A stretch of DNA of 64,000 nt from a virus (taxonomy: Duplodnaviria > Caudoviricetes): IMG/VR virus record IMGVR_UViG_3300021400_001148, positions 192,001-256,000 of that record; one strand, given 5' to 3'. Within the stretch, counting starts at the first letter, position 1. Every line of letters starts with the position of its first letter. The notes beneath the pieces were generated by a model. That model worked only from the letters and a program-made list of their open reading frames with translations. It did not search any database and was not told the origin of the DNA. The position numbers and the translations under genes were made by a program. Of the stretch, positions 8,194-56,553 are shown piece after piece.

Positions 8194-9351
8194 ATGAAGA
8201 TTTTTTTAACCGAGGAGCAAATAAGAAAAATGCTCAACGAATCATTTTCGAGATACATATACCATTTTACAACATATGAGGTACTTTACAATATGCTAAA
8301 AATGGACGCGTTTATTCTGAGTAGTTCGTTAACAACACAAGTCGACAAAGAATTAAATAATGGCTATTCTTTTTACATGTCATTCACAAGGCAACACACA
8401 AACAAAGTTGGCTTCCCGGCGTGGAAAAACTATGTGGTATCCAGAAGTAATGGCCCAGAGAGTGACTTTATGAATGTTAGAATTACAGTAAACGGTGATT
8501 TGCTGGGCAGTACATATAAGGGCTCTCCGGTAAATTATCACCATAAAGCAATACGAACAAGCAATCAGCAAAAAGAGGTTGGGTCTGACCCGGCTGTGCT
8601 GGTTACAATAAGGCAATCAGAAGATAGACTTTTGTCCAACGAACCCATTGTTAAAGGGATTTCGCGTTTCATTGAAAGAATAGACATTCTGGCTCCGAAA
8701 TCTGAAAACAACACCATAAAACAGAATACGGTAAACTCAATTTATAAAATATTAAGAATATCAAAGAATGAATATGCAAACAGAATTTTTGTCTATGATA
8801 ACGAAAGGGATTTTAACATGCCTAAGTCAAGAAATTACATCAATGGCAAAATAATCTCTATGCTATCAGGCAATATTCTTAATTCAATTAACGATAAAAA
8901 CATCATTAATAATGATATCGTAAAGCAAAATACCGTTACTAGCAGAGGGCATGACAGAATTAAACTTTTAAGTCAATATCAACTCGAATATATTGGCGCA
9001 ACTGCCATAATGCTGGCAGAATTGACTAGAAACCCGGGGAATATAGAAAAATATATTGATTATATTTTTTCCACAAGACAAAAGTATGTCGGAAATACAA
9101 AGATAGCAAGGGAAAAAGGACAAGCCCTGCGGCTCGGAAAAAAACTTTTTAAAACGAACAACCCCATTGAAAGTTATCTGGGAAAATTTAAGTTTTTTTC
9201 CCAGTCATTTTCTGGCAGCACAAGAGACATGTATGCTCTTATGATGCATTTAATGAAACAAGTCGTAGATGCTTATGGATTTGGCTCAGTTCCGCAGTTA
9301 CTCCGAGCCATTAATAGTGGAAAACTTAAACCAATGCACTTGAACCTTTAA
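8194..9351 (+). CDS. Hypothetical protein with LTE-type leader; first domain possibly ADP-ribosyltransferase-like
   Basis: MKIFLTEEQIRKMLNES start, TATTTATA at 8127; YHFT…SFTR…EDR pattern. Confidence 0.65.
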   Translation: MKIFLTEEQIRKMLNESFSRYIYHFTTYEVLYNMLKMDAFILSSSLTTQVDKELNNGYSFYMSFTRQHTNKVGFPAWKNYVVSRSNGPESDFMNVRITVNGDLLGSTYKGSPVNYHHKAIRTSNQQKEVGSDPAVLVTIRQSEDRLLSNEPIVKGISRFIERIDILAPKSENNTIKQNTVNSIYKILRISKNEYANRIFVYDNERDFNMPKSRNYINGKIISMLSGNILNSINDKNIINNDIVKQNTVTSRGHDRIKLLSQYQLEYIGATAIMLAELTRNPGNIEKYIDYIFSTRQKYVGNTKIAREKGQALRLGKKLFKTNNPIESYLGKFKFFSQSFSGSTRDMYALMMHLMKQVVDAYGFGSVPQLLRAINSGKLKPMHLNL

Positions 9352-22797: not shown

Positions 22798-22862
22798 CGG
22801 AATTATCCCTTTATCTGTTGTGAATAAGTCATAAAGAAAGCCGTAGGTGAAAAATCTACGGC

Positions 22863-23387
22863 TTAAATTGTATCAACATATTGTGTTATTGTATCTGTGT
22901 TTCTTGATAGAATTGCATTGAATATACCCTGCACTTTGCTTATGCAATCAATCAGCGTTGTAGCATATTCGTCTGACTTCGTATCAATACCTTCTTCGTA
23001 GAACTTATTGTGAACGGTAAGGTTGATTGCATTTGGTATTGAGAAGTCATTTTCTTCCCAAACCTCATTAAAAACTTTTTGCCTCTTCTCAGGTGCATCA
23101 TTTCCTTTGATGGAATGCCTTGCAGCAGTTGAAAGATGTCCCCTCAATTCTCCTTTCCAATGCTCTTTTGATAATGGTTCGCCTGTAATTGTACAATAGT
23201 GAACCAAGCACCAATTTATAAGAATTTGAGGTAATTCATTGTTGATTTTTTCCTTATAAACACCCCTTGGATATGGCATTTCCATAATCAGATGTTTTCC
23301 CCTTGCTTCCAACGCCTGCTCCACAGATTCCCGAATCATTTCCCTTAATTGAGATTCGGAGAGTTTTATCACTTCTTTCTTTGCCAT
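22863..23387 (-). CDS. Passenger gene with leader motif; helical domain of unknown function
   Basis: MAKKEVIKLSESQLREMIRESVEQALE; own TATATTTG at 23407-23414; terminator at 22838-22864. Confidence 0.8.
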   Translation of the reverse strand: MAKKEVIKLSESQLREMIRESVEQALEARGKHLIMEMPYPRGVYKEKINNELPQILINWCLVHYCTITGEPLSKEHWKGELRGHLSTAARHSIKGNDAPEKRQKVFNEVWEENDFSIPNAINLTVHNKFYEEGIDTKSDEYATTLIDCISKVQGIFNAILSRNTDTITQYVDTI

Positions 23388-23439
23388 ATTCGTACTTAAG
23401 TTTTATCAAATATACTAAAAATATTTGAGAATTACAAAG

Positions 23440-23889
23440 TTAAAAGGCAAAATCACCATTAAGGTAAGAGTCTGGATGAATCGGATTTTCATAAGGTTTA
23501 TCATATTCATCTTTAAATTGATTAGCAAGTTCTATTAGTCCAACCTTCATCTTCTGAAAAGGCTCACAATATTTGTTCCCTGATTGGTAAAGAATACCTA
23601 CGGCATCAGCCAATGAGTTGATTGAGTCCTTAATTTTTCCCATAGCCGATGAATAATCAAAAACCTCTTCAGATTCCTTCAAGTTTTTATTGTTAGGGTT
23701 TTTTCCACCTTTGTATATGTAGTCCATTGTTTCCCTATACTTGCTGGCATCGTCCATATCTTTAAACCATTGTTGCATGGGGTCCTTCTTATCTCGTTTA
23801 GGGTGATATTCTTTCAAAACTTTTTTCACGCTCTCTGTAATCATGTTTCGGAGTTGCGTTTCATTCAATTTGATTACATTCTTCTCCAT
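23440..23889 (-). CDS. Passenger gene with leader motif, function unknown
   Basis: MEKNVIKLNETQLRNMITESVKKVLKE; TATTTATA at 23922-23929 on the minus strand. Confidence 0.8.
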   Translation of the reverse strand: MEKNVIKLNETQLRNMITESVKKVLKEYHPKRDKKDPMQQWFKDMDDASKYRETMDYIYKGGKNPNNKNLKESEEVFDYSSAMGKIKDSINSLADAVGILYQSGNKYCEPFQKMKVGLIELANQFKDEYDKPYENPIHPDSYLNGDFAF

Positions 23890-23946
23890 ATATTCAATCT
23901 ATTTATAAAGTCTTATTTAATTATAAATAGTTTGAAAACCAGTAAA

Positions 23947-24888
23947 CTACGCAGCAATTGAAAGTTTTACGAGACTTTCGAAACCTTCTTCCACTTTTCT
24001 GTGATTCATACGGAAACAGAATTCATCCATATATGTCTGCATGTGCTTGACTGATACATGATGATAGATACCATATACACCCCTTTTCACGATTGCCCAA
24101 AAGGATTCAATACCATTGGTATGCTTTCCGTCACCCTTGGAAAATTCAACATCGTGGTTCACCATGATACGAATGAAATTCTTCGTGTTCTCAGCACGTC
24201 CTTCGTTAATGACATTGTAGCCACTGTACTGGTCTGTCATAACCGTAGTACCTTCCTTACAGGCATCATTCAGTACCTTTAACAATTGTTTACCTGACAG
24301 TTTAGTCCCATCTGAATTCTTGGTGGCAACCACACAATGCACCCTGCCACTACTTCTTTCCTTAACACCGATAACAGGTGTTTTGGAAGACGAACCACGC
24401 CCACGCTTGTTAAATTTCTCATTGGTTTCCCTCTCATTGTGAATATTTTCCTTACGAGGTTTACCACCAACATAAGTTTCATCAACTTCCACAATGGCTT
24501 CAAAAGTATTCTTATACTCTTCCTTACCCATGCACTCACGGATAAGGTGAAGCATTCTCCAAGCACCCTTATAGGAAACCATACCAAGTTCCCTTTGCAA
24601 CTGACAAGCGGAAATACCCTTCTTTGCAACCATAACGAGATTGATTGCATACAGCCACATGCGAATGTCAAGGTGGGTATTTTCAAAGATAGTTCCTGTC
24701 AGCACAGAGAAATGGGATTTGCAGTTATTGCAGTACAAATCCTTTCCGTCATGGGAGTTGTCTCTATAGATGTTATGAACACACCCACAGAACGGGCATA
24801 CATAAGTGCCGTTATACTTAACACGGATAATGAAGTCAATGGCAGACTTCTTGGTGGGGAAACGCTTGTTGAAATCAAAAATAGTCAT
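23947..24888 (-). CDS. IS1595-family DDE transposase
   Basis: Zn ribbon CPFC…CNNC; EVDETYVGGK, MTD, HTNGIESFW..KRG..GIYH. Confidence 0.93.
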   Translation of the reverse strand: MTIFDFNKRFPTKKSAIDFIIRVKYNGTYVCPFCGCVHNIYRDNSHDGKDLYCNNCKSHFSVLTGTIFENTHLDIRMWLYAINLVMVAKKGISACQLQRELGMVSYKGAWRMLHLIRECMGKEEYKNTFEAIVEVDETYVGGKPRKENIHNERETNEKFNKRGRGSSSKTPVIGVKERSSGRVHCVVATKNSDGTKLSGKQLLKVLNDACKEGTTVMTDQYSGYNVINEGRAENTKNFIRIMVNHDVEFSKGDGKHTNGIESFWAIVKRGVYGIYHHVSVKHMQTYMDEFCFRMNHRKVEEGFESLVKLSIAA

Positions 24889-24970
24889 AGTCTAAGTCCT
24901 TCTAACCTAAATCTATGACTATATACCCTAAAAGTCCAGGATTCTTACAACATAAAAAGGGATAATTCCG

Positions 24971-25204: not shown

Positions 25205-25371
25205 CGCAGGAGAAAATCTCACGGCTTTATCTGTTGGAATAAACCCTGTGGAGAAACTTCGTCGGGACATCGACGAATTGGCGAGCGACGGTAAGCCCAA
25301 TGACCGCGTGGTCAGCGGCGGGTGCGTTTGAAGCCAAGAATCTCACGGATTCATCCGTGGGAGTATGCCAA
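25205..25371 (+). mobile_element. Non-autonomous IS200/IS605 (TnpB-type) miniature element, copy 1
   Basis: LE hairpin remnant; RE CAAGAATCTCACGGATTCATCCGTGGGAGTATGCCAA; homologous to 56395-56553. Confidence 0.8.
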
Positions 25372-28298: not shown

Positions 28299-29966
28299 AT
28301 GAAATACTTGACCAAATTCGGTACTCAAAACGAATATGTTTCTTTTGCAAACAGCGATGCATACGAAACACCCAATGTAAGCCTTGTGGGGGAGGGTACT
28401 GTAAAGTACAATGACTATAGTAAGATGCCACTTACAATTAAAGCATTGGAAAGTGGTGTTTTTGGGCTTGTTTCGGACTATTATGAAGGATTTCTCGAAG
28501 TTGACCTCTGGTATTCAAAGAACGGTGGCGAAAGAATAACCATTACTTCTGCTGACACCGTTAGTGTCAATGCAGGTGATATTTTGGAATTGTATGGAAA
28601 CAACACCCGTTTCTACAATGATGATGACAGTGAGTTGGGCACATACTTTTCTATAGGTTTTGAGTGCAATATATATGGCAATCTAATGTCCATCTTCAAC
28701 GGGGATGGCTTCAAGACCAATTCGGAATTTACGCCGGAATATAATAAACAATGTTATGGTCTATTTAGGGAAAGCAAAGTAGTTGATGCTTCTAAATTGA
28801 TATTACCCGCAACCACGCTTGCGGGCTCTTGCTATCAGTATATGTTCAATGGTTGCACCTCCCTGATATCAGCGCCGGCGGCACTTCCAGCAACCACGCT
28901 TGCACCGGATTGCTATTCCAGTATGTTCCAAGATTGTATCTCCCTGACCTCCGCACCGGCACTCCCTGCAACGACGCTTGTGAGTAATTGCTATGAGAAT
29001 ATGTTCGCTGGTTGCGCCTCCCTGGCCTCTGCACCGGAACTCCCAGCGACCACACTTGCGAATCATTGTTATTACGGTATGTTCGATGGTTGCACTTCCC
29101 TGACCTCCGCACCGGAACTTCCAGCAACCACGCTTTCAAGTAATTGTTATAACTATATGTTCAGTGGTTGCACATCCCTGGCATCAGCACCGGAACTTCC
29201 AGCAACCACGCTTGCGAATGGTTGCTATCAGAATATGTTCTTTGGTTGCACCTCCCTTGCCTCCGCACCTGAACTTCCCGCAACCACCCTTGCGGATTCT
29301 TGCTATCAGTATATGTTCCGTAATTGCACCTCCCTGACCTCCGCGCCAGAACTTTCAGCAACCACCCTTGCGAATTCTTGCTGTCTGCATATGTTCAATG
29401 GTTGCACCTCCCTGACCTCTGTGCCGGAACTTCCCGCAACCACACTTGCGACTCGTTGCTATTCCAATATGTTCCAAGGTTGCACCTCTCTGACCTCCGC
29501 ACCTGAACTCCCCGCAACCACCCTTGCAGATAATTGCTATCAGTATATGTTCAAAAATTGCACCTCGCTGACCTCCGCGCCGGAACTTCCCGCAACCACG
29601 CTTACAACTCAATGCTATTACAATATGTTCGTAGGTTGCGTCTCCCTGACCTCCGCACCGGAACTTCCAGCAACCACACTTGCGAATTATTGCTATCAAA
29701 ATATGTTCCAAGGTTGCACTTCTCTTATCTCTGCGCCGGAACTTCCGGCGACCACCCTTGCATCTCAATGCTATTACAGCATATTCAGTGGTTGCACATC
29801 CCTAAATCACATCAAGTGCCTTGCAACGAATATATCAGCAACAGGGGCATTAACAAATTGGGTTCGGAATGTTGCCGCATCAGGAACTTTTATAAAAAAA
29901 TCAGGCGTGTCTTGGCCCTCAGGTGTGAGTGGTATTCCTTCCGGTTGGACAGTTCAAGAAGTATAA
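28299..29966 (+). CDS. BspA-like leucine-rich repeat protein
   Basis: 13 x 26-aa LPATTLxxxCYxxMFxGCTSLTSAPE repeats; C-terminal SGIPSGWTV cap. Confidence 0.85.
   Translation: MKYLTKFGTQNEYVSFANSDAYETPNVSLVGEGTVKYNDYSKMPLTIKALESGVFGLVSDYYEGFLEVDLWYSKNGGERITITSADTVSVNAGDILELYGNNTRFYNDDDSELGTYFSIGFECNIYGNLMSIFNGDGFKTNSEFTPEYNKQCYGLFRESKVVDASKLILPATTLAGSCYQYMFNGCTSLISAPAALPATTLAPDCYSSMFQDCISLTSAPALPATTLVSNCYENMFAGCASLASAPELPATTLANHCYYGMFDGCTSLTSAPELPATTLSSNCYNYMFSGCTSLASAPELPATTLANGCYQNMFFGCTSLASAPELPATTLADSCYQYMFRNCTSLTSAPELSATTLANSCCLHMFNGCTSLTSVPELPATTLATRCYSNMFQGCTSLTSAPELPATTLADNCYQYMFKNCTSLTSAPELPATTLTTQCYYNMFVGCVSLTSAPELPATTLANYCYQNMFQGCTSLISAPELPATTLASQCYYSIFSGCTSLNHIKCLATNISATGALTNWVRNVAASGTFIKKSGVSWPSGVSGIPSGWTVQEV
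28803..29804 (+). repeat. 78-bp coding tandem repeat, 13 units
   Basis: Visible periodicity in both DNA and protein. Confidence 0.9.
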
Positions 29967-34952: not shown

Positions 34953-35645
34953 ATGAGACTTGTTGAGATAAAGAAAAACAATATAGGGACGGGACTTTTG
35001 GTTGAAAGTGACGGATTCATTTCGTTGCAGGATGAACATAACAAGCCCCTGCGTGAGGCTATAGGGGCCCCGGGGGAACTTAATCTTCCCAATCCGTTTG
35101 TGGTAAATGCGGTGTTTCAGAAATTCGGCATTGAAAACGCCAACGGAAGAATCTACCCAGAGGATGTACTCAAAAGAGAAGTTGAGAAGTATCTTCAAAA
35201 AGTCGCTGACAGAAGGGGCTACGGAGAAGCCAACCACCCGGATTCGAGTTCAATTGATACCGACCGCATCGCTATAAACATCATTGAACTCCACTGGGAA
35301 GGAAACACTCTTGTCGGTAAAATAGAGCTCCCGCTTTCCCCGGGGTTCAGAAAATATGGCATTATCACTTGCAAAGCTGACCTCGTGGCAAACTGGCTTC
35401 TTAACGGCCTCAAACTCGGCGTTTCTTCCAGAGGCGTGGGTTCCGTTGAACAGAAATACGGAAAATATATTGTCGGTGACGATTTTGAACTTATCTGCTG
35501 GGATGTGGTAACCGACCCGTCGACCCCGGGAGCATGGATTTCCGAAAATCCAGAAGAACTTCAGCAATATGTGGAATCAAAGGAAGATAAAGAAAATATT
35601 TTAACGGAAAAATTAAATAAATTCAAAGATTGGCTTTCAATATAA
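34953..35645 (+). CDS. Prohead core protease (T4 gp21-like)
   Basis: NANGRIYP, GEANHP, LGVSSRGVGS, WDVVTDPSTPGA. Confidence 0.92.
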   Translation: MRLVEIKKNNIGTGLLVESDGFISLQDEHNKPLREAIGAPGELNLPNPFVVNAVFQKFGIENANGRIYPEDVLKREVEKYLQKVADRRGYGEANHPDSSSIDTDRIAINIIELHWEGNTLVGKIELPLSPGFRKYGIITCKADLVANWLLNGLKLGVSSRGVGSVEQKYGKYIVGDDFELICWDVVTDPSTPGAWISENPEELQQYVESKEDKENILTEKLNKFKDWLSI

Positions 35646-46970: not shown

Positions 46971-47597
46971 ATGAAAGTTATTCTCACTGAAAGCCAGTTT
47001 AAAACAATGCTGAACGAAGATATTATAATGGAGTCTTTGTTCCGCCGGGGCATGTCTTTCAATGAGATAGTAAATGCAGTAAAAATTGTTGCAAGAAAAG
47101 GCTTGCTTACCGCCAGTCTTATTGCTAATATAGTTTTTACTTTCAAACTCAGCCAATCACAAGCAGAGGTCATTGAAAACATTGCTAAAATAGAGCAGAC
47201 CCAGCCTCAGACAAACAAATGGGTACTCCTTGCAGACGATGTTCTCGCAACCGTTTACAATGCAGTGCCGGCACAATGCAACAAAGATGTGCAACACACG
47301 GCATCTATGTTCAAGTTAAATCTGAACGATGTTCTATCTCATAGGATTATTGCAATGGAGCGTACTATGATGAAAGAATATGGACTGAAATACGGTGATG
47401 TTGTCCGCATAGAAGGTACTGGCAAGTGGGATGGCGAATGGCAGATACAAGATACAATGAATAAACGGTTTGCTGGGCAACACAAGATTGATATCTTGGT
47501 TCCGAACAATATTCGAACAGGAAAGTGGGATAATGTCAAAATCTATGTTCCTGCGAATGAAGAAACAAAACTCGCAGCAAAAGAGCAAATGAGCTAA
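46971..47597 (+). CDS. 3D-domain (MltA/RlpA-like) cell-wall enzyme with leader motif
   Basis: ATVY…TAS…IIA…YGD.V.IEG…DTMNKRF…IDIL; MKVILTESQFKTMLNE. Confidence 0.75.
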   Translation: MKVILTESQFKTMLNEDIIMESLFRRGMSFNEIVNAVKIVARKGLLTASLIANIVFTFKLSQSQAEVIENIAKIEQTQPQTNKWVLLADDVLATVYNAVPAQCNKDVQHTASMFKLNLNDVLSHRIIAMERTMMKEYGLKYGDVVRIEGTGKWDGEWQIQDTMNKRFAGQHKIDILVPNNIRTGKWDNVKIYVPANEETKLAAKEQMS

Positions 47598-47752
47598 AAA
47601 AAGGTGGTATTTTACCACCTTTTATTTTGGGAACGATATACTACTTTACACCAATAATCGTGTAAATATTTGAAGTCCAGCGCAAATAACGCTGGACTAT
47701 TTGTAAGATTCCGCTAGTTTTCAGGTATAGATGTGTAGAAAGTACCTGAACT

Positions 47753-48694
47753 ATGAGACTTGAACTTGAACATTTTGACTCCCTTATCTTCCTAGTCAGC
47801 CATTTCAATAGCTACAAACGTTGCCGTGACTTCATTACCAAGCAGCGTTGGGGTAAGGTGGTTGTCTGCCCGCACTGCGGCTCCGTGCATGTTTACACAT
47901 GTAGCAACGGTGATAATCAGTTCAAGTGTGCCGATTGTCACAAGCGATTCTCCTGTCTTGTAGGCACCATCTTCGAAAATACCAAACTGCCCTTGCAGAA
48001 ATGGTTTATGGCTATGTATCTTATCAGTAGCCATAAGAAGGGGATTTCCTCCCATCAGCTTGGACGTGACATCCACGTCACGCAGAAGACTGCATGGTAT
48101 ATTCTCCATAAAGTTCGTACTCTGTTTGCACAGTACGATACTACCGTCCTTTACGGTGAGGTGGAAATGGACGAAATGTACCTTGGTGGACGTGAAACCA
48201 ATAAGCACGAATCCAAGAAAACAGAAGGAACGCAGGGACGTTCCACCAAGACTAAGACTCCCATCTTCGGTATGGTGGCAAGAGAAGGCGAAGCCCGTGC
48301 TCTTGTCGTAAAGGACACCAAGGCTGCTACGCTTTTGCCCATCATCAAACAGTTCGTTGCTGACAATGCTCATATCTTTACGGACGAGCTCAGTTCGTAT
48401 GCAGGTTTGTCTGGTGAAGGATACAAGCACGGCATCATCCACCACGGCGAAAAGGAATATTCTAAGGACGGTATCACCACCAACTCCATCGAAGGTTTTT
48501 GGGCTCATTTCAAGCGCACGGTGTTTGGTATCTATCACTTCGTGAGCAAGGAATACCTTCAGCAGTATATCAACGAATCCGTGTACCGTTACAATACAAG
48601 AAAAGCGAACGAATCCGTCCGCTTTGCCGATATGTTATCCAAGTGTATTGGAGTATGCTCCTATGAAGACGTTAAGTCGCTGAAGGTGGCTTAA
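47753..48694 (+). CDS. IS1595-family DDE transposase
   Basis: CPHC…CADC; EMDEMYLGG, FTDE, TTNSIEGFW..KR…GIYH. Confidence 0.93.
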   Translation: MRLELEHFDSLIFLVSHFNSYKRCRDFITKQRWGKVVVCPHCGSVHVYTCSNGDNQFKCADCHKRFSCLVGTIFENTKLPLQKWFMAMYLISSHKKGISSHQLGRDIHVTQKTAWYILHKVRTLFAQYDTTVLYGEVEMDEMYLGGRETNKHESKKTEGTQGRSTKTKTPIFGMVAREGEARALVVKDTKAATLLPIIKQFVADNAHIFTDELSSYAGLSGEGYKHGIIHHGEKEYSKDGITTNSIEGFWAHFKRTVFGIYHFVSKEYLQQYINESVYRYNTRKANESVRFADMLSKCIGVCSYEDVKSLKVA

Positions 48695-49005
48695 TCACTA
48701 AGCGTGCTTGCTTCTTGTCTAACTCTATCTGCCCATTGCTTTGCTTTGATAAACCAATTGTCCTCACTATTCGTTCCGTTCATGGCGAGCGAGGATAATT
48801 TCCTTGCAGCCTTTTCTATTATTCGGAGTAACAACAAAGAATCATCACACTCATCAATGAGGGACATTATTTGTCTCTCATATGCAAAGAATTCCGCATT
48901 CCCATTTTCTGTATTAGGATACCCCTCATTCAGCGTCTTTTTTATTGCCCCCGCAATAACCTTGCGGAGTTGTTGTTCATTGAGCTTTATTGTATTCTTC
49001 TTCAT
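48691..49005 (-). CDS. Passenger gene with leader motif, function unknown
   Basis: MKKNTIKLNEQQLRKVIAGAIKKTLNE; TATTTATA at 49235-49242 on the minus strand, inside the element. Confidence 0.75.
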   Translation of the reverse strand: MKKNTIKLNEQQLRKVIAGAIKKTLNEGYPNTENGNAEFFAYERQIMSLIDECDDSLLLLRIIEKAARKLSSLAMNGTNSEDNWFIKAKQWADRVRQEASTLSD

Positions 49006-49053
49006 ATTCTTGTTTGATTTTGATTCGTTAGTTTTATTCTGTATATTTGCATC

Positions 49054-49235
49054 CGAAGGTGTATTAGCGTCAAGTGAAGCAGTATCCATAGGAAGGCGTG
49101 TATTTCCAAAGGATGAACTACCGTCTGTACTGTCAGGGACTTTGATAGCGCTAATTACCTTATGGGTGAATCCGTTTAATCACCAAACAAAAGAACTCCG
49201 TTCTCCCCGTAGTCCTTCGCTGCGGGGTTCTTTTT
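49054..49235 (+). ncRNA. Candidate structured small RNA inside IS element B
   Basis: TATATTTG at 49042-49049; long closing stem 49056-49074/49140-49161; GC hairpin plus T-tract at 49205-49235. Confidence 0.5.
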
Positions 49236-49296
49236 ATAAATATGCCTTATTCTCGAAAAGAGTCAAGAGATAGTGTAAACTAGTATATCGTTCCCT

Positions 49297-49680
49297 TTAT
49301 TTTATATATATAGCCAAATCACTGGCAATTGGCACCTTAAGTAGACCCTCCGGATAATCAACCCCATCCTCGGTCAACCCCCCGAGGAAATTTATGTTGA
49401 ACATACCAATGAACTTTCCCCTTTCGTTAGTGTCCCGTTTTTTCCAAGTATACTGTATAATATATTTCTCTTCACAGCCACCGTCCTCTACTTCAAGTAT
49501 TTCACACTTGGCGTTCGAAATTTTAAGGATGTCCGTGTCGGCGTTCCTCATTGAAAAAGTAACATCCGCGTTCTGTATTGCGTTGTAAAACTTATTGAAG
49601 GAATACCTCCCGTCGTTGATGAGTTCCATTCTTAGAACTGGAAGTACTGAGCCTTCGTTTATGAAAAATTCCTGTTCCAT
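49297..49680 (-). CDS. BppU-N-like structural protein
   Basis: F.I…LP.L…A.VTFSM…Y.W…DT…G.F.G.F.I.F…L.VP pattern. Confidence 0.6.
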   Translation of the reverse strand: MEQEFFINEGSVLPVLRMELINDGRYSFNKFYNAIQNADVTFSMRNADTDILKISNAKCEILEVEDGGCEEKYIIQYTWKKRDTNERGKFIGMFNINFLGGLTEDGVDYPEGLLKVPIASDLAIYIK

Positions 49681-51117: not shown

Positions 51118-52563
51118 ATGAAAATACACACATTTCTCGATAAGTGTTGTACGATAGTTAAAGGGTCAAAAATTAATTTCGGCCTTAATCCTGTTGCAGA
51201 GATTAACATGGGGAGCCTGATAAGCCGGGCGTGCCTCCACTTCGATATCGACCATCTCAAAAATTTATATGAGGATAAGACCATTGCCAATCTAGAGAAA
51301 ACCAAGCATGTTTTAAAACTAACAAACTGTTCTTCTGTCAATATCAACGATGCCAGAAAGGTCCGCGCCGGTATAGTTAATGTTGACGAAAAGGAACGCG
51401 CTTCGTCTTTTGATGTTATTCTTTTCAAAATACCTAAAGATTTTGATGAGGGAAACGGTTTTAGTTTCAGGGATACATATTGGCTCTCCAGTAATGAGAA
51501 AAAATCCACTTCCGGGTGCAGTTGGTTTCAATGCAGAAACAATATACCATGGTTAGGGGAGGATGATATTTCTGGTGATACCCACTATTCAAACGGAATA
51601 TATGATGATGATTATCTTTATTCCGAGTATAAAAAATACATTGCCGGGGAGAAGTCTGAAATAATCGTTGCCAGCCAGCATTTTGACTACGGTGCTGAAA
51701 ATTTCAATCTTGACATTACTGACTATGTTAATGAAGTTATTACTGGAGAAACCATAGACCACGGACTCTGTCTCGCTTTTTCTCCGGATTATGAAACACA
51801 TCCGTACAAGGAACAAAAATATGTTGGTTTTTTCACTAACCACACCAATCTCTTCTTTGAACCTTATGTTGAGACAGATTATCAAGAATACATCAATGAT
51901 GACCGTGGAAAGTTTTACATCGGTAAGGAAAACCACCTGTATCTTTACTGTTCGATAGACGGTGAACTCAAAAACCTTGATTCACTCCCGGTCTGCACAA
52001 TAGACGGCATTGAGTATCCGGTACAGCAGGCGACAAAGGGCGTGTACTATGCAACCGTTAAAATAACCGACGCGGAACCAGAAACCATATTCTATGATAT
52101 TTGGAGTGATTTGTCTTTGAATGGCGAACCTATCGATGATGTAGAGATGGAATTTGTGGCATTACCCAAGTCTTCATATCTTAAAGTTGGGAAATTCATT
52201 GGGGAAAAATATGATGTTACCCCAACACTTTCAGGTATTAATGATAATGAGCCCGTTCGCATTGGCGATATACGAAGAGTTGATGTGGCTTTCAGAACGC
52301 CTTATACCATAAATTCATCGCAGATTTTCGACAAAGCAGAGTATCGAATTTATACAAAGGATGCCACGCGGGAAATCGATGTGTACGAGTATTCACCAGT
52401 CGAAACTGCATTTCTCAACAACTTTTTTGTTGTTGATTCAACAGAAATGGTGCCCGGGGATTACTTCGTGGATATTAAAATAAAAACCGGATTTGACACG
52501 AAGGTCTATAAGAATGTTCTTCGTTTTTCAATTGTGAGTAATGTCACTGAATTCTACAAATAA
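51118..52563 (+). CDS. Putative virion structural protein
   Basis: Late motif at 51094; beta-rich 481 aa ORF. Confidence 0.65.
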   Translation: MKIHTFLDKCCTIVKGSKINFGLNPVAEINMGSLISRACLHFDIDHLKNLYEDKTIANLEKTKHVLKLTNCSSVNINDARKVRAGIVNVDEKERASSFDVILFKIPKDFDEGNGFSFRDTYWLSSNEKKSTSGCSWFQCRNNIPWLGEDDISGDTHYSNGIYDDDYLYSEYKKYIAGEKSEIIVASQHFDYGAENFNLDITDYVNEVITGETIDHGLCLAFSPDYETHPYKEQKYVGFFTNHTNLFFEPYVETDYQEYINDDRGKFYIGKENHLYLYCSIDGELKNLDSLPVCTIDGIEYPVQQATKGVYYATVKITDAEPETIFYDIWSDLSLNGEPIDDVEMEFVALPKSSYLKVGKFIGEKYDVTPTLSGINDNEPVRIGDIRRVDVAFRTPYTINSSQIFDKAEYRIYTKDATREIDVYEYSPVETAFLNNFFVVDSTEMVPGDYFVDIKIKTGFDTKVYKNVLRFSIVSNVTEFYK

Positions 52564-52614
52564 GTGGTATCTGTACCATTTTTAAGAAATGTACCACCTT
52601 TTGGGTGGTACATT

Positions 52615-53571
52615 TTAGTTTATTCTTACTGTCTGGCTTAATATTGTGTTTAGGGGGTAGTCAGTAAGTCTTCTCACATCCTCACCAACAACAGGAGGTA
52701 ACTGTGCCCACCGGTGCTGGTGCGTGAGAAATGCTGTCTTGAATATATTCAAAAACTCCAAAAGAGTGTCACCATAAGGAACTTGATGAGCCTTTTTAAT
52801 AAAGCGGTCCATTTCTTCGTCAGAAATCAGTTTCTCGGGGTCATTGACTTTATATATGTCCCTCGAATCGGTACCAATAAGATTTATCTTATCCGCAACT
52901 ATATTTGCGACACTTTCATAACCGCGTTCCTCCTGTTCCTTCCTCGTTTCCATTTGTGTTTGAAAATCTTCTGAAACATCGGGGCCAATGTTTCTAAAAT
53001 GTTTAAGTTTGATGAAAGCGGGATGTTTTCCGTTAAACTCAAACTCTGAACTATCATTGGTTAGAACCGTTGTATTTTTGACACCGCAGCGTACATGAAT
53101 TTCATCTTCTTTCAAAATAATATCGCTATCTTTTCTACCGAGAACAGCAACATCTGTTTTGTCCGGTAATGTACCGGGTGTCTCTCTTTTATATTCGGGA
53201 TTTTCGTCTGCACCAATCAATGTACCGCTTAAAAGCCTCGTTGATGTAAAATAATCATTATTGTACATAAACTGTGGCTGCGCGATAATTGGTCCCAAAT
53301 AATAGCGTTGACTATGCGATTCATCCAGTGCTTGGTTTATGATAAAAACCCCTTCGCCCACCTTTGGTATGACATGAAAAAATTTGGGAAGAAATGGAAA
53401 AGCGTAATGTGTGACATTATTTCCACCAATGGCAACGGCTGTTTTGTCATTTTCCATTGCAGCGATTTTCTCCCCACTATCTTCGTATGCAATAGCAACT
53501 TTAATCCTGCCGGCACCAGTTTCATCTTTAGTGCTGACAACTCGTCCAAATCTTATTTCTGGTTTTTTCAT
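52615..53571 (-). CDS. Baseplate hub/spike protein with gp5-like OB-fold N-terminus
   Basis: G.V….D….GRIKV…P.LP….PKVGE.V; C-terminal H.H motif. Confidence 0.7.
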   Translation of the reverse strand: MKKPEIRFGRVVSTKDETGAGRIKVAIAYEDSGEKIAAMENDKTAVAIGGNNVTHYAFPFLPKFFHVIPKVGEGVFIINQALDESHSQRYYLGPIIAQPQFMYNNDYFTSTRLLSGTLIGADENPEYKRETPGTLPDKTDVAVLGRKDSDIILKEDEIHVRCGVKNTTVLTNDSSEFEFNGKHPAFIKLKHFRNIGPDVSEDFQTQMETRKEQEERGYESVANIVADKINLIGTDSRDIYKVNDPEKLISDEEMDRFIKKAHQVPYGDTLLEFLNIFKTAFLTHQHRWAQLPPVVGEDVRRLTDYPLNTILSQTVRIN

Positions 53572-56394: not shown

Positions 56395-56553
56395 TTGACA
56401 TACTCCCACGGATGAATCCGTGAGATTCTTGATTTTAAACGCACCCGCCGCTGACCACACGGTCATTGGTCTTACAAGCACTCACCAATTCGTCGATGTC
56501 CCGACGAAGTACGGGATTCATCCCACCACTAAAGTAGTGGGTTTTCTCCCGGA
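56395..56553 (-). mobile_element. Non-autonomous IS200/IS605 (TnpB-type) miniature element, copy 2
   Basis: LE hairpin CCCACTACTTTAGTGGTGGG; RE …CTCACGGATTCATCCGTGGGAGTATGTCAA; homologous to 25205-25371. Confidence 0.82.

Follow-up and report, generated by a model that had tools for sequence, protein, structure and literature searches.

An IS1595 element between two convergent phage genes

The window analysed here, a stretch of 64 kb, is contained in the complete 354,809-bp genome of a T4-like jumbo phage from the rumen (G000), which encodes a T4-type portal, a head maturation protease (window 34953-35645) and a gp23-like capsid protein. A search of the 354,809-bp genome for an integrase gave no match. 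An IS1595 transposon of 1,667 bp, element B, lies between two convergent phage genes and has left both unbroken. To its left is a conserved 208-aa gene (46971..47597, plus strand) that bears the leader discussed below and sits two genes downstream of the T4-type portal; to its right is a 127-aa gene (49297..49680, minus strand) with a late motif at 49705-49698. The insertion point is the T-tract of the terminator that formerly stood between these neighbours. The target-site duplication, the 8-mer TTTATTTT, is identical on both sides (8/8), with the left copy at 47621..47628 in the terminator T-tract and the right copy at 49296..49303, where it includes the stop codon of the 127-aa gene. The 23-nt terminal inverted repeats at 47629..47651 (plus) and 49273..49295 (minus) pair at 22 of 23 nt, with a single mismatch. 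A preliminary description of this DNA, made from the sequence alone, had reported these repeats and a perfect duplication, and the coordinates and the exact 8-mer match bear it out.

It had also proposed a search for empty sites; no exact empty site for B was found in JGI metagenomes. In related phages (72-76% protein identity), B is absent from the orthologous interval (L199), or a different cassette without a transposase occupies it (L198). The latter (L198:7063-7538) holds a GNAT gene alone and has a perfect duplication. The intergenic interval used by B and by this cassette is possibly an insertion hot spot. An exact search for B's repeat in viral contigs gave no match. No second copy of B with the same passenger was found, and B with its passenger is known from one site.

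The transposase gene (47753..48694, plus strand) is predicted to encode a 313-aa IS1595 transposase with a zinc ribbon and a DDE domain (PF12760 and PF12762). Its frame is uninterrupted over the full 313 aa, the catalytic residues D140, D211 and E247 are in place and the zinc ribbon consists of C39/C42/C59/C62 (PF12760, 37.2 bits), confirming the earlier statement that the transposase is intact. The NF033547 score is 207.5 bits (cut-off 75), dN/dS against sister elements is about 0.02-0.03, and GC3 is 0.55 against a genome median of 0.42. An N-terminal zinc ribbon is found in all IS1595 groups except IS1016. Element B combines the zinc ribbon with the ~25-bp, GG-starting inverted repeats and the 8-bp duplication of the family, and has a passenger gene between the repeats, the feature of a transporter IS (tIS). 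By every feature checked, B is an IS1595-family transporter IS. Its anatomy is that of an element whose transposase would insert it at AT-rich positions and duplicate 8 bp of the target.

Passenger-carrying transporter IS of the IS1595 family include MTnSag1/tISSag10 and tISCpe8 (PMC5704250; PMC8101967). Like MTnSag1 and tISCpe8, B has a single zinc-ribbon DDE transposase, an 8-bp duplication and an AT-rich target, and its dimensions are similar (23-bp repeats, 1,667 bp and one passenger, against ~25-bp repeats, 1.7-2 kb and one passenger). The passengers of those elements are host resistance genes spread via conjugation, whereas the cargo of the B lineage consists of phage late genes and is modular at a peptide-coding repeat, and the second replicon of the lineage is a jumbo phage without an integrase.

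The passenger gene (48691..49005, minus strand) is convergent with the transposase gene, the two overlapping by 4 nt at their stops. It would encode a 104-aa protein made up of a 27-aa leader and a helical domain of ~75 aa. Its GC3 of 0.41 is similar to that of phage genes, and comparison with homologs at 55-59% identity gave a dN far below dS; judged on its sequence, the passenger is a real gene, and the convergent ORF with its leader (49005-48691) had been correctly described. The leader-coding DNA (48925..49005, minus strand), a breakpoint of the cargo mosaic, encodes a propeptide that is a candidate for prohead targeting and keeps the first and third L-x-E sites of the family; the middle site is degenerate. 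The passenger frame remains open upstream, where an ATG at 49089 would give 132 aa, and these 58 codons (49006..49179, minus strand) contain a linker that matches L094 and L174. They are probably the remnant of an N-terminal domain that is fused to the leader in full-length sisters; a search for protein homologs of this remnant found none. The passenger itself had no match in Pfam, PHROG, NCBIfam or PADLOC, its model (pLDDT 65) had only generic four-helix structural matches (best Z 10.3, among unrelated bundles), and every match in an Atlas search fell below 0.9. Cleavage after the leader would release a protein of ~75 aa, modelled with three helices. Free-standing homologs of the passenger occur in clusters of leader genes, and others adjoin a transposase remnant.

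The late-type motif TATTTATA occurs 23 times in the window, where 3.6 copies would be expected, and stands before head and other late-type genes. The passenger had been credited with a late motif of its own. A copy is present inside B on the passenger strand (49235..49242, minus), but it overlaps a terminator of the plus strand at its T-tract and lies 229 nt upstream of the passenger ATG, against a motif-to-start distance of mostly 7-33 nt in the window, which makes it doubtful as the passenger's own promoter. The case for a late promoter specific to B is further weakened by a TAnnTTTG box (49042..49049, plus strand) that intervenes before the passenger and points the opposite way. We take this box to be a Bacteroidota-type promoter; no gene stands behind it, and in sister elements the partner gene sits here.

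An intrinsic-terminator-like hairpin at 49205..49237 (plus strand) is common to B and element L024, and the terminator and adjacent late motif of the two agree at 82% over 66 nt. Positions 49056-49235, between the orphan promoter and the terminator, may encode a structured small RNA. This putative 180-nt transcript folds better than shuffled sequence, contains a rod-like fold (49056..49161, plus strand; z -2.83) and is antisense to the region upstream of the passenger; it had no match in Rfam and no homolog in the fetched loci beyond the terminator. Insertion of B has shifted the terminator of the 127-aa neighbour 1.7 kb away, and the passenger is co-oriented with that neighbour, so that late read-through is plausible. 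The passenger is probably transcribed late, either by read-through from this neighbour or from the distal motif.

Relatives and leader cargo in phages and Bacteroidales

Relatives were sought in viral, genome and metagenome collections, one set comprising roughly 990 homologs. In a quick tree, the B transposase falls into a clade of 31 rows (SH-aLRT 100) in which 17 viral and 14 genome rows are interleaved. Elements of this clade have related repeats and 8-bp AT-rich duplications, and their hosts are jumbo phages and Bacteroidales chromosomes. One stretch of 1,399 bp is 99.5% identical between a jumbo phage (L174) and a bacterial-type contig (L231/L232), where the copy is flanked by its own perfect duplication; the stretch shared by L174 and L232 takes in a homolog of B's passenger, and divergence begins at the leader start. 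For this sister pair, joint movement of element and passenger is therefore shown. L316, L317 and L319 have an exact copy of B's left repeat at target sites other than B's, and L320-L322 have it with a single change. Sister transposases 91-92% identical in DNA to that of B are found on a phage-like contig (L319) and adjoining a GH3 gene (L320-L322), and they carry other cargo in both the phage-like and the bacterial settings. We considered L320-L322 as a case of cargo exchange at one site and rejected it, as they represent a single element with frameshift differences.

Chromosomal copies adjoin ribosomal-protein, rpoA, dxs-like and GH3 genes (by-eye translations or precomputed Pfam assignments) and have perfect duplications among housekeeping genes; they include one in the isolate Hoylesella loescheii, and some other host contexts were judged from flanking genes in MAGs or contigs. 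The closest matches, at 82-92%, are mostly chromosomal or come from contigs of bacterial type. Because close sisters occur in both phage and bacterial settings, the lineage is not confined to phages but shuttles, and as part of the explanation preferred below we think it probable that it cycles between T4-like jumbo phages of Bacteroidales and host chromosomes. The description of B as phage-resident therefore did not survive, many of its closest relatives being chromosomal or in bacterial-type contigs. The preliminary description had itself named homologs mainly in bacterial chromosomes and without such passengers as evidence against its reading; relatives are indeed often chromosomal, but their passengers are of the same phage type.

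To follow the leader itself, we used a profile built from genes outside elements, for which a reversed control gave no match. The profile matched 16 ORFs in G000, and a late motif lies within 70 nt of 10 of the 16, compared with 43 of 438 other ORFs. Five related jumbo phages, all with a T4 portal, had 5-12 matches each. Among genomes of the host family, 17 of 401 had a match, which in 15 of the 17 adjoined an IS1595 transposase or lay between repeats; four of five element-bearing hosts had a single strong match, in each case the element itself. Host-borne leader genes have kept the late motif (27/29, against 8/98 other ORFs). Within the clade, leader cargo was present in 14 of 25 elements, with 8/14 for those borne by phages and 6/9 for those in chromosomes, and in 0 of 28 more distant IS1595 elements, as well as in 21 of 34 elements of a second, partly overlapping set; the elements in this census are interrelated, so p-values exaggerate their independence. 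The preliminary description had proposed a test for leader-tagged passengers across homologous transposases; together with the link between leader and late motif in G000, the census supports its view that the design is a system. All IS1595 relatives examined have passengers, and leader cargo occurs in at least three transposase lineages, namely the B clade, element A and L217.

We rejected the idea that most leader genes of phages were deposited by IS elements, as only 2 of 20 regions have an IS end near such genes. Since the leader is common in phages and host leaders lie beside IS1595 parts, the tag is native to the phages, with the transposon carrying a sample. The transposon moves a minority of phage leader genes. 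The distribution shows that cargo is drawn from the phage late-gene pool and, together with the link between leader and late motif, supports the earlier view that this cargo is of phage rather than host type.

Element A (window 22798-24970) belongs to a second IS1595 lineage on a long branch and has two leader passengers; its transposase is 36% identical to that of B, and its ends are unrelated. The suggestion that A and B share one design stands as regards the unrelated ends and the two leader genes, but the duplication of A is imperfect (6/8). A second frequent class of cargo (family F1, in L020, L023, L028 and others) consists of leucine-rich-repeat proteins that are preceded by the late motif and share an N-terminus of their own, unlike the leader. 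Repeat-bounded leader-gene cassettes without a transposase occur in host genomes (L208, L212, L213 and L222). On gut jumbo-phage-like contigs (L189-L190), a leader-gene cluster lies beside Cas3 and Cas7fv-like genes, and the genes that follow a repeat at one site differ from strain to strain.

The leader, its partner domains and cargo exchange

The family leader logo has three [ILV]-x-E sites, the first E serving as anchor, and conservation stops after the third. In T4, gp21 cuts after L/I-X-E (PMC9026906), and the T4 tag brings diverse proteins into heads, the IPs being injected anti-restriction proteins (PMC9026906, PMC3012670, PMC12373910). We derived an [ILV]-x-E-type motif from the leader and scored it on other proteins of G000. 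The motif was in excess in the scaffold-position protein (7 against 0.98), in two other head-region proteins, of 270 aa and 854 aa, and in the protease; no excess was seen in the terminase or the polymerase, or in proteins presumed from position and size to form the sheath, tube and neck. The leader sites of B fail the stricter motif used for this test. Leaders are also internal or C-terminal in some proteins. In the cultured relative Flavobacterium phage immuto, genes around the head genes encode similar N-termini; a search for a cultured phage with a clear match to this leader found none.

By analogy with T4, the leader is probably a capsid-targeting tag, and the passenger may be packaged into heads, cleaved by the protease and delivered as an effector. 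As with IPI-III and Alt of the T-even phages, which are non-essential, diverse small proteins here share only an N-terminal tag with L/I-X-E, and G000, like T4, encodes a gp21-type protease. Unlike the T4 tag of 10 aa, the B-family leader is ~27 aa long, has three sites and also occurs internally; unlike the T-even internal proteins, the candidate tag of the B family rides a transposon and occurs in host chromosomes. Two leader proteins (window 8194-9351 and L024:6354-7277) have an H-x-T motif that by eye recalls ADP-ribosyltransferase folds and T4 Alt; the L024 protein had no match in Pfam.

Close sisters of B are 2.3-2.6 kb long and usually contain, in this order, the transposase, a late gene with an N-domain, the leader and a variable C-domain, and a divergent gene with a host-type promoter. 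Particular N-domain and partner families occur together (F16/F17 in 3/3, F21/F22 in 2/2, and RxSNH subfamilies with F19, F20 and F30), and this pairing holds while the C-domain after the leader varies. An R-x-S-x-H motif is invariant in the N-domain found most often (RxSNH); the model of this domain (pLDDT 82) gave a best Z of 4.5 and a TM of at most 0.50, so we did not assign a fold. The partner in L250 is GNAT-like. When the L250 pair was modelled as a complex, it reached 0.84 in two of three runs, against 0.00 for the best of three controls, and 0.00 in the third run (the runs share at least 0% of their contacts, and the pLDDT of the partner is 76 or higher); this mark is reached by 58/80 solved and 2/110 mismatched pairs, a calibration that is roughly valid here, where our own alignments were used. 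The modelled interface includes residues 36 and 54 beside invariant S/Y/R/S/H positions. Two of three runs thus support binding between the L250 N-domain and its partner.

Searches for a toxin or defence family gave no match. Polymorphic toxin-immunity pairs combine a variable domain with a linked, fast-evolving partner. The sister elements resemble them in having a variable domain whose linked, fast-evolving partner is predicted to bind near conserved residues, and differ in that their divergent promoters are of two classes, they have no known toxin fold or activity and the pair is absent from B. Where sisters have the N-domain and partner genes, B keeps the linker, the orphan promoter and the terminator, which makes it read as a deletion derivative. 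It appears to have lost both genes together.

DNA identity between B and its sisters (L319, L320-L322) stops at the transposase stop codon and resumes only in an 80-110-bp leader island. Elsewhere, pairwise identity often starts or stops at leader DNA (L086/L232, L098/L214 and L216/L224) or is confined to leader-only islands (L033/L105 and L094/L232), and frameshifted and non-autonomous copies occur among the relatives. These positions suggest that cargo is exchanged by recombination at the repeated 80-110-bp leader DNA and the transposase 3' end, a route that would also account for internal leaders in fusion proteins. In T4-like phages, exchange points are provided by PeSLs, motifs of an early promoter and a terminator (PMC4122927). 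In the B lineage, too, a short conserved repeat joins unrelated modules; unlike a PeSL, this repeat lies in late genes and codes for peptide, and the transposase adds mobility.

Explanations for the lineage

The most probable account, in our judgement, is that B is a shortened, phage-borne copy of an IS1595 lineage that shuttles between jumbo phages and Bacteroidales chromosomes with phage late cargo. The transposase would transfer all DNA between the repeats to an AT-rich site, resulting in an 8-bp duplication, and cargo would be taken from the phage late-gene pool and swapped through recombination at leader DNA and the transposase 3' end. The leader would most probably carry unrelated small proteins into the prohead, where a T4-type protease would clip after the glutamate, and the product would be injected at the next infection. 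B would have retained only the leader and the C-terminal domain, with late transcription by read-through or from the distal motif.

The strict phage-resident version, in which injected effectors are moved only between jumbo phage genomes, accommodates the many copies in jumbo phages and the different cassette of L198 in the same interval, but we consider it very improbable, as the closest matches (82-92%) are largely chromosomal or bacterial-type, with perfect duplications, and include one in an isolate genome. It is unlikely, too, that an ordinary host transporter IS passively picks up nearby phage genes that bring no benefit, with late intergenic AT-richness and leader DNA acting as a repeat behind the pattern and the leader being another interaction helix. 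Such hitch-hiking would fit the presence of passengers in all examined IS1595 relatives, the AT-rich targets, the truncated appearance of B, the frameshifted and non-autonomous copies and the rarity of IS ends near phage leaders. It sits poorly with purifying selection on cargo ORFs, with retention of the late motif by 27/29 host copies, with leader cargo in at least three transposase lineages and with a motif pattern that tracks presumed head proteins.

A toxin-antidote-like arrangement would extend the shuttling account rather than displace it, and we raise it tentatively. Here, a late leader-tagged effector would be bound by the product of a divergent host-promoter partner gene, and the effector, loaded into progeny virions from a copy in a phage or in the host, would harm the following infection wherever the partner gene is lacking. 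Co-segregation of N-domain and partner families while the C-domain varies points in this direction, as do the modelled L250 complex, the late motif kept by host copies and the apparent loss of both genes from B at once. However, the leader crossover does not separate the N-domain from the partner gene, and their co-segregation would follow from linkage by itself; moreover, no toxin or defence family was matched, the modelled pair is single and not from B, and many elements carry other cargo (leucine-rich-repeat proteins, or GNAT alone). It may be that the transposon lineage exploits jumbo-phage head assembly, with effector loaded into virions, from phage or host DNA, by way of the phage late promoter and the prohead-targeting leader, and a host-promoter partner that protects carriers. 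A transposon of this kind could conceivably act as a virion-delivered toxin-antidote drive or as an infection-triggered defence, of which B would be a disarmed copy.

We found no paper describing this system in the literature searched, which was mostly outside subscription journals. What is new is tag-bearing phage late cargo that moves between jumbo phages and hosts and is modular at the tag. The lineage would resemble T4 loci for internal proteins coupled to a transposon. The shuttling account implies two-way DNA traffic between integrase-less jumbo phages and Bacteroidales chromosomes, and the distribution of the clade points to hosts for jumbo phages of the rumen and gut that have not been cultured. 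For this phage group, the analysis names a candidate late promoter, a candidate tag for capsid loading and many undescribed proteins that are candidates for injection. Because there are chromosomal copies, including one in a cultured strain, parts of the system are open to study without isolating the phage.

Smaller repeats were also observed in this genome. Outside the window (G000 52466-52630) lies a miniature element of 165 bp, which has repeats of the clade type and is flanked by a perfect duplication of 8 bp, and orphan clade-type repeats stand at window 3865 and at G000 5516. The latter is directly upstream of a 557-aa gene with a late motif, which begins like the repeat protein at window 28299-29966. 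Two inverted 116-nt copies, 91% alike, lie at window 25256-25371 and 56395-56510; short repeats at 25215 and 53588 are related to them, and these are possibly the ends of another mobile element.
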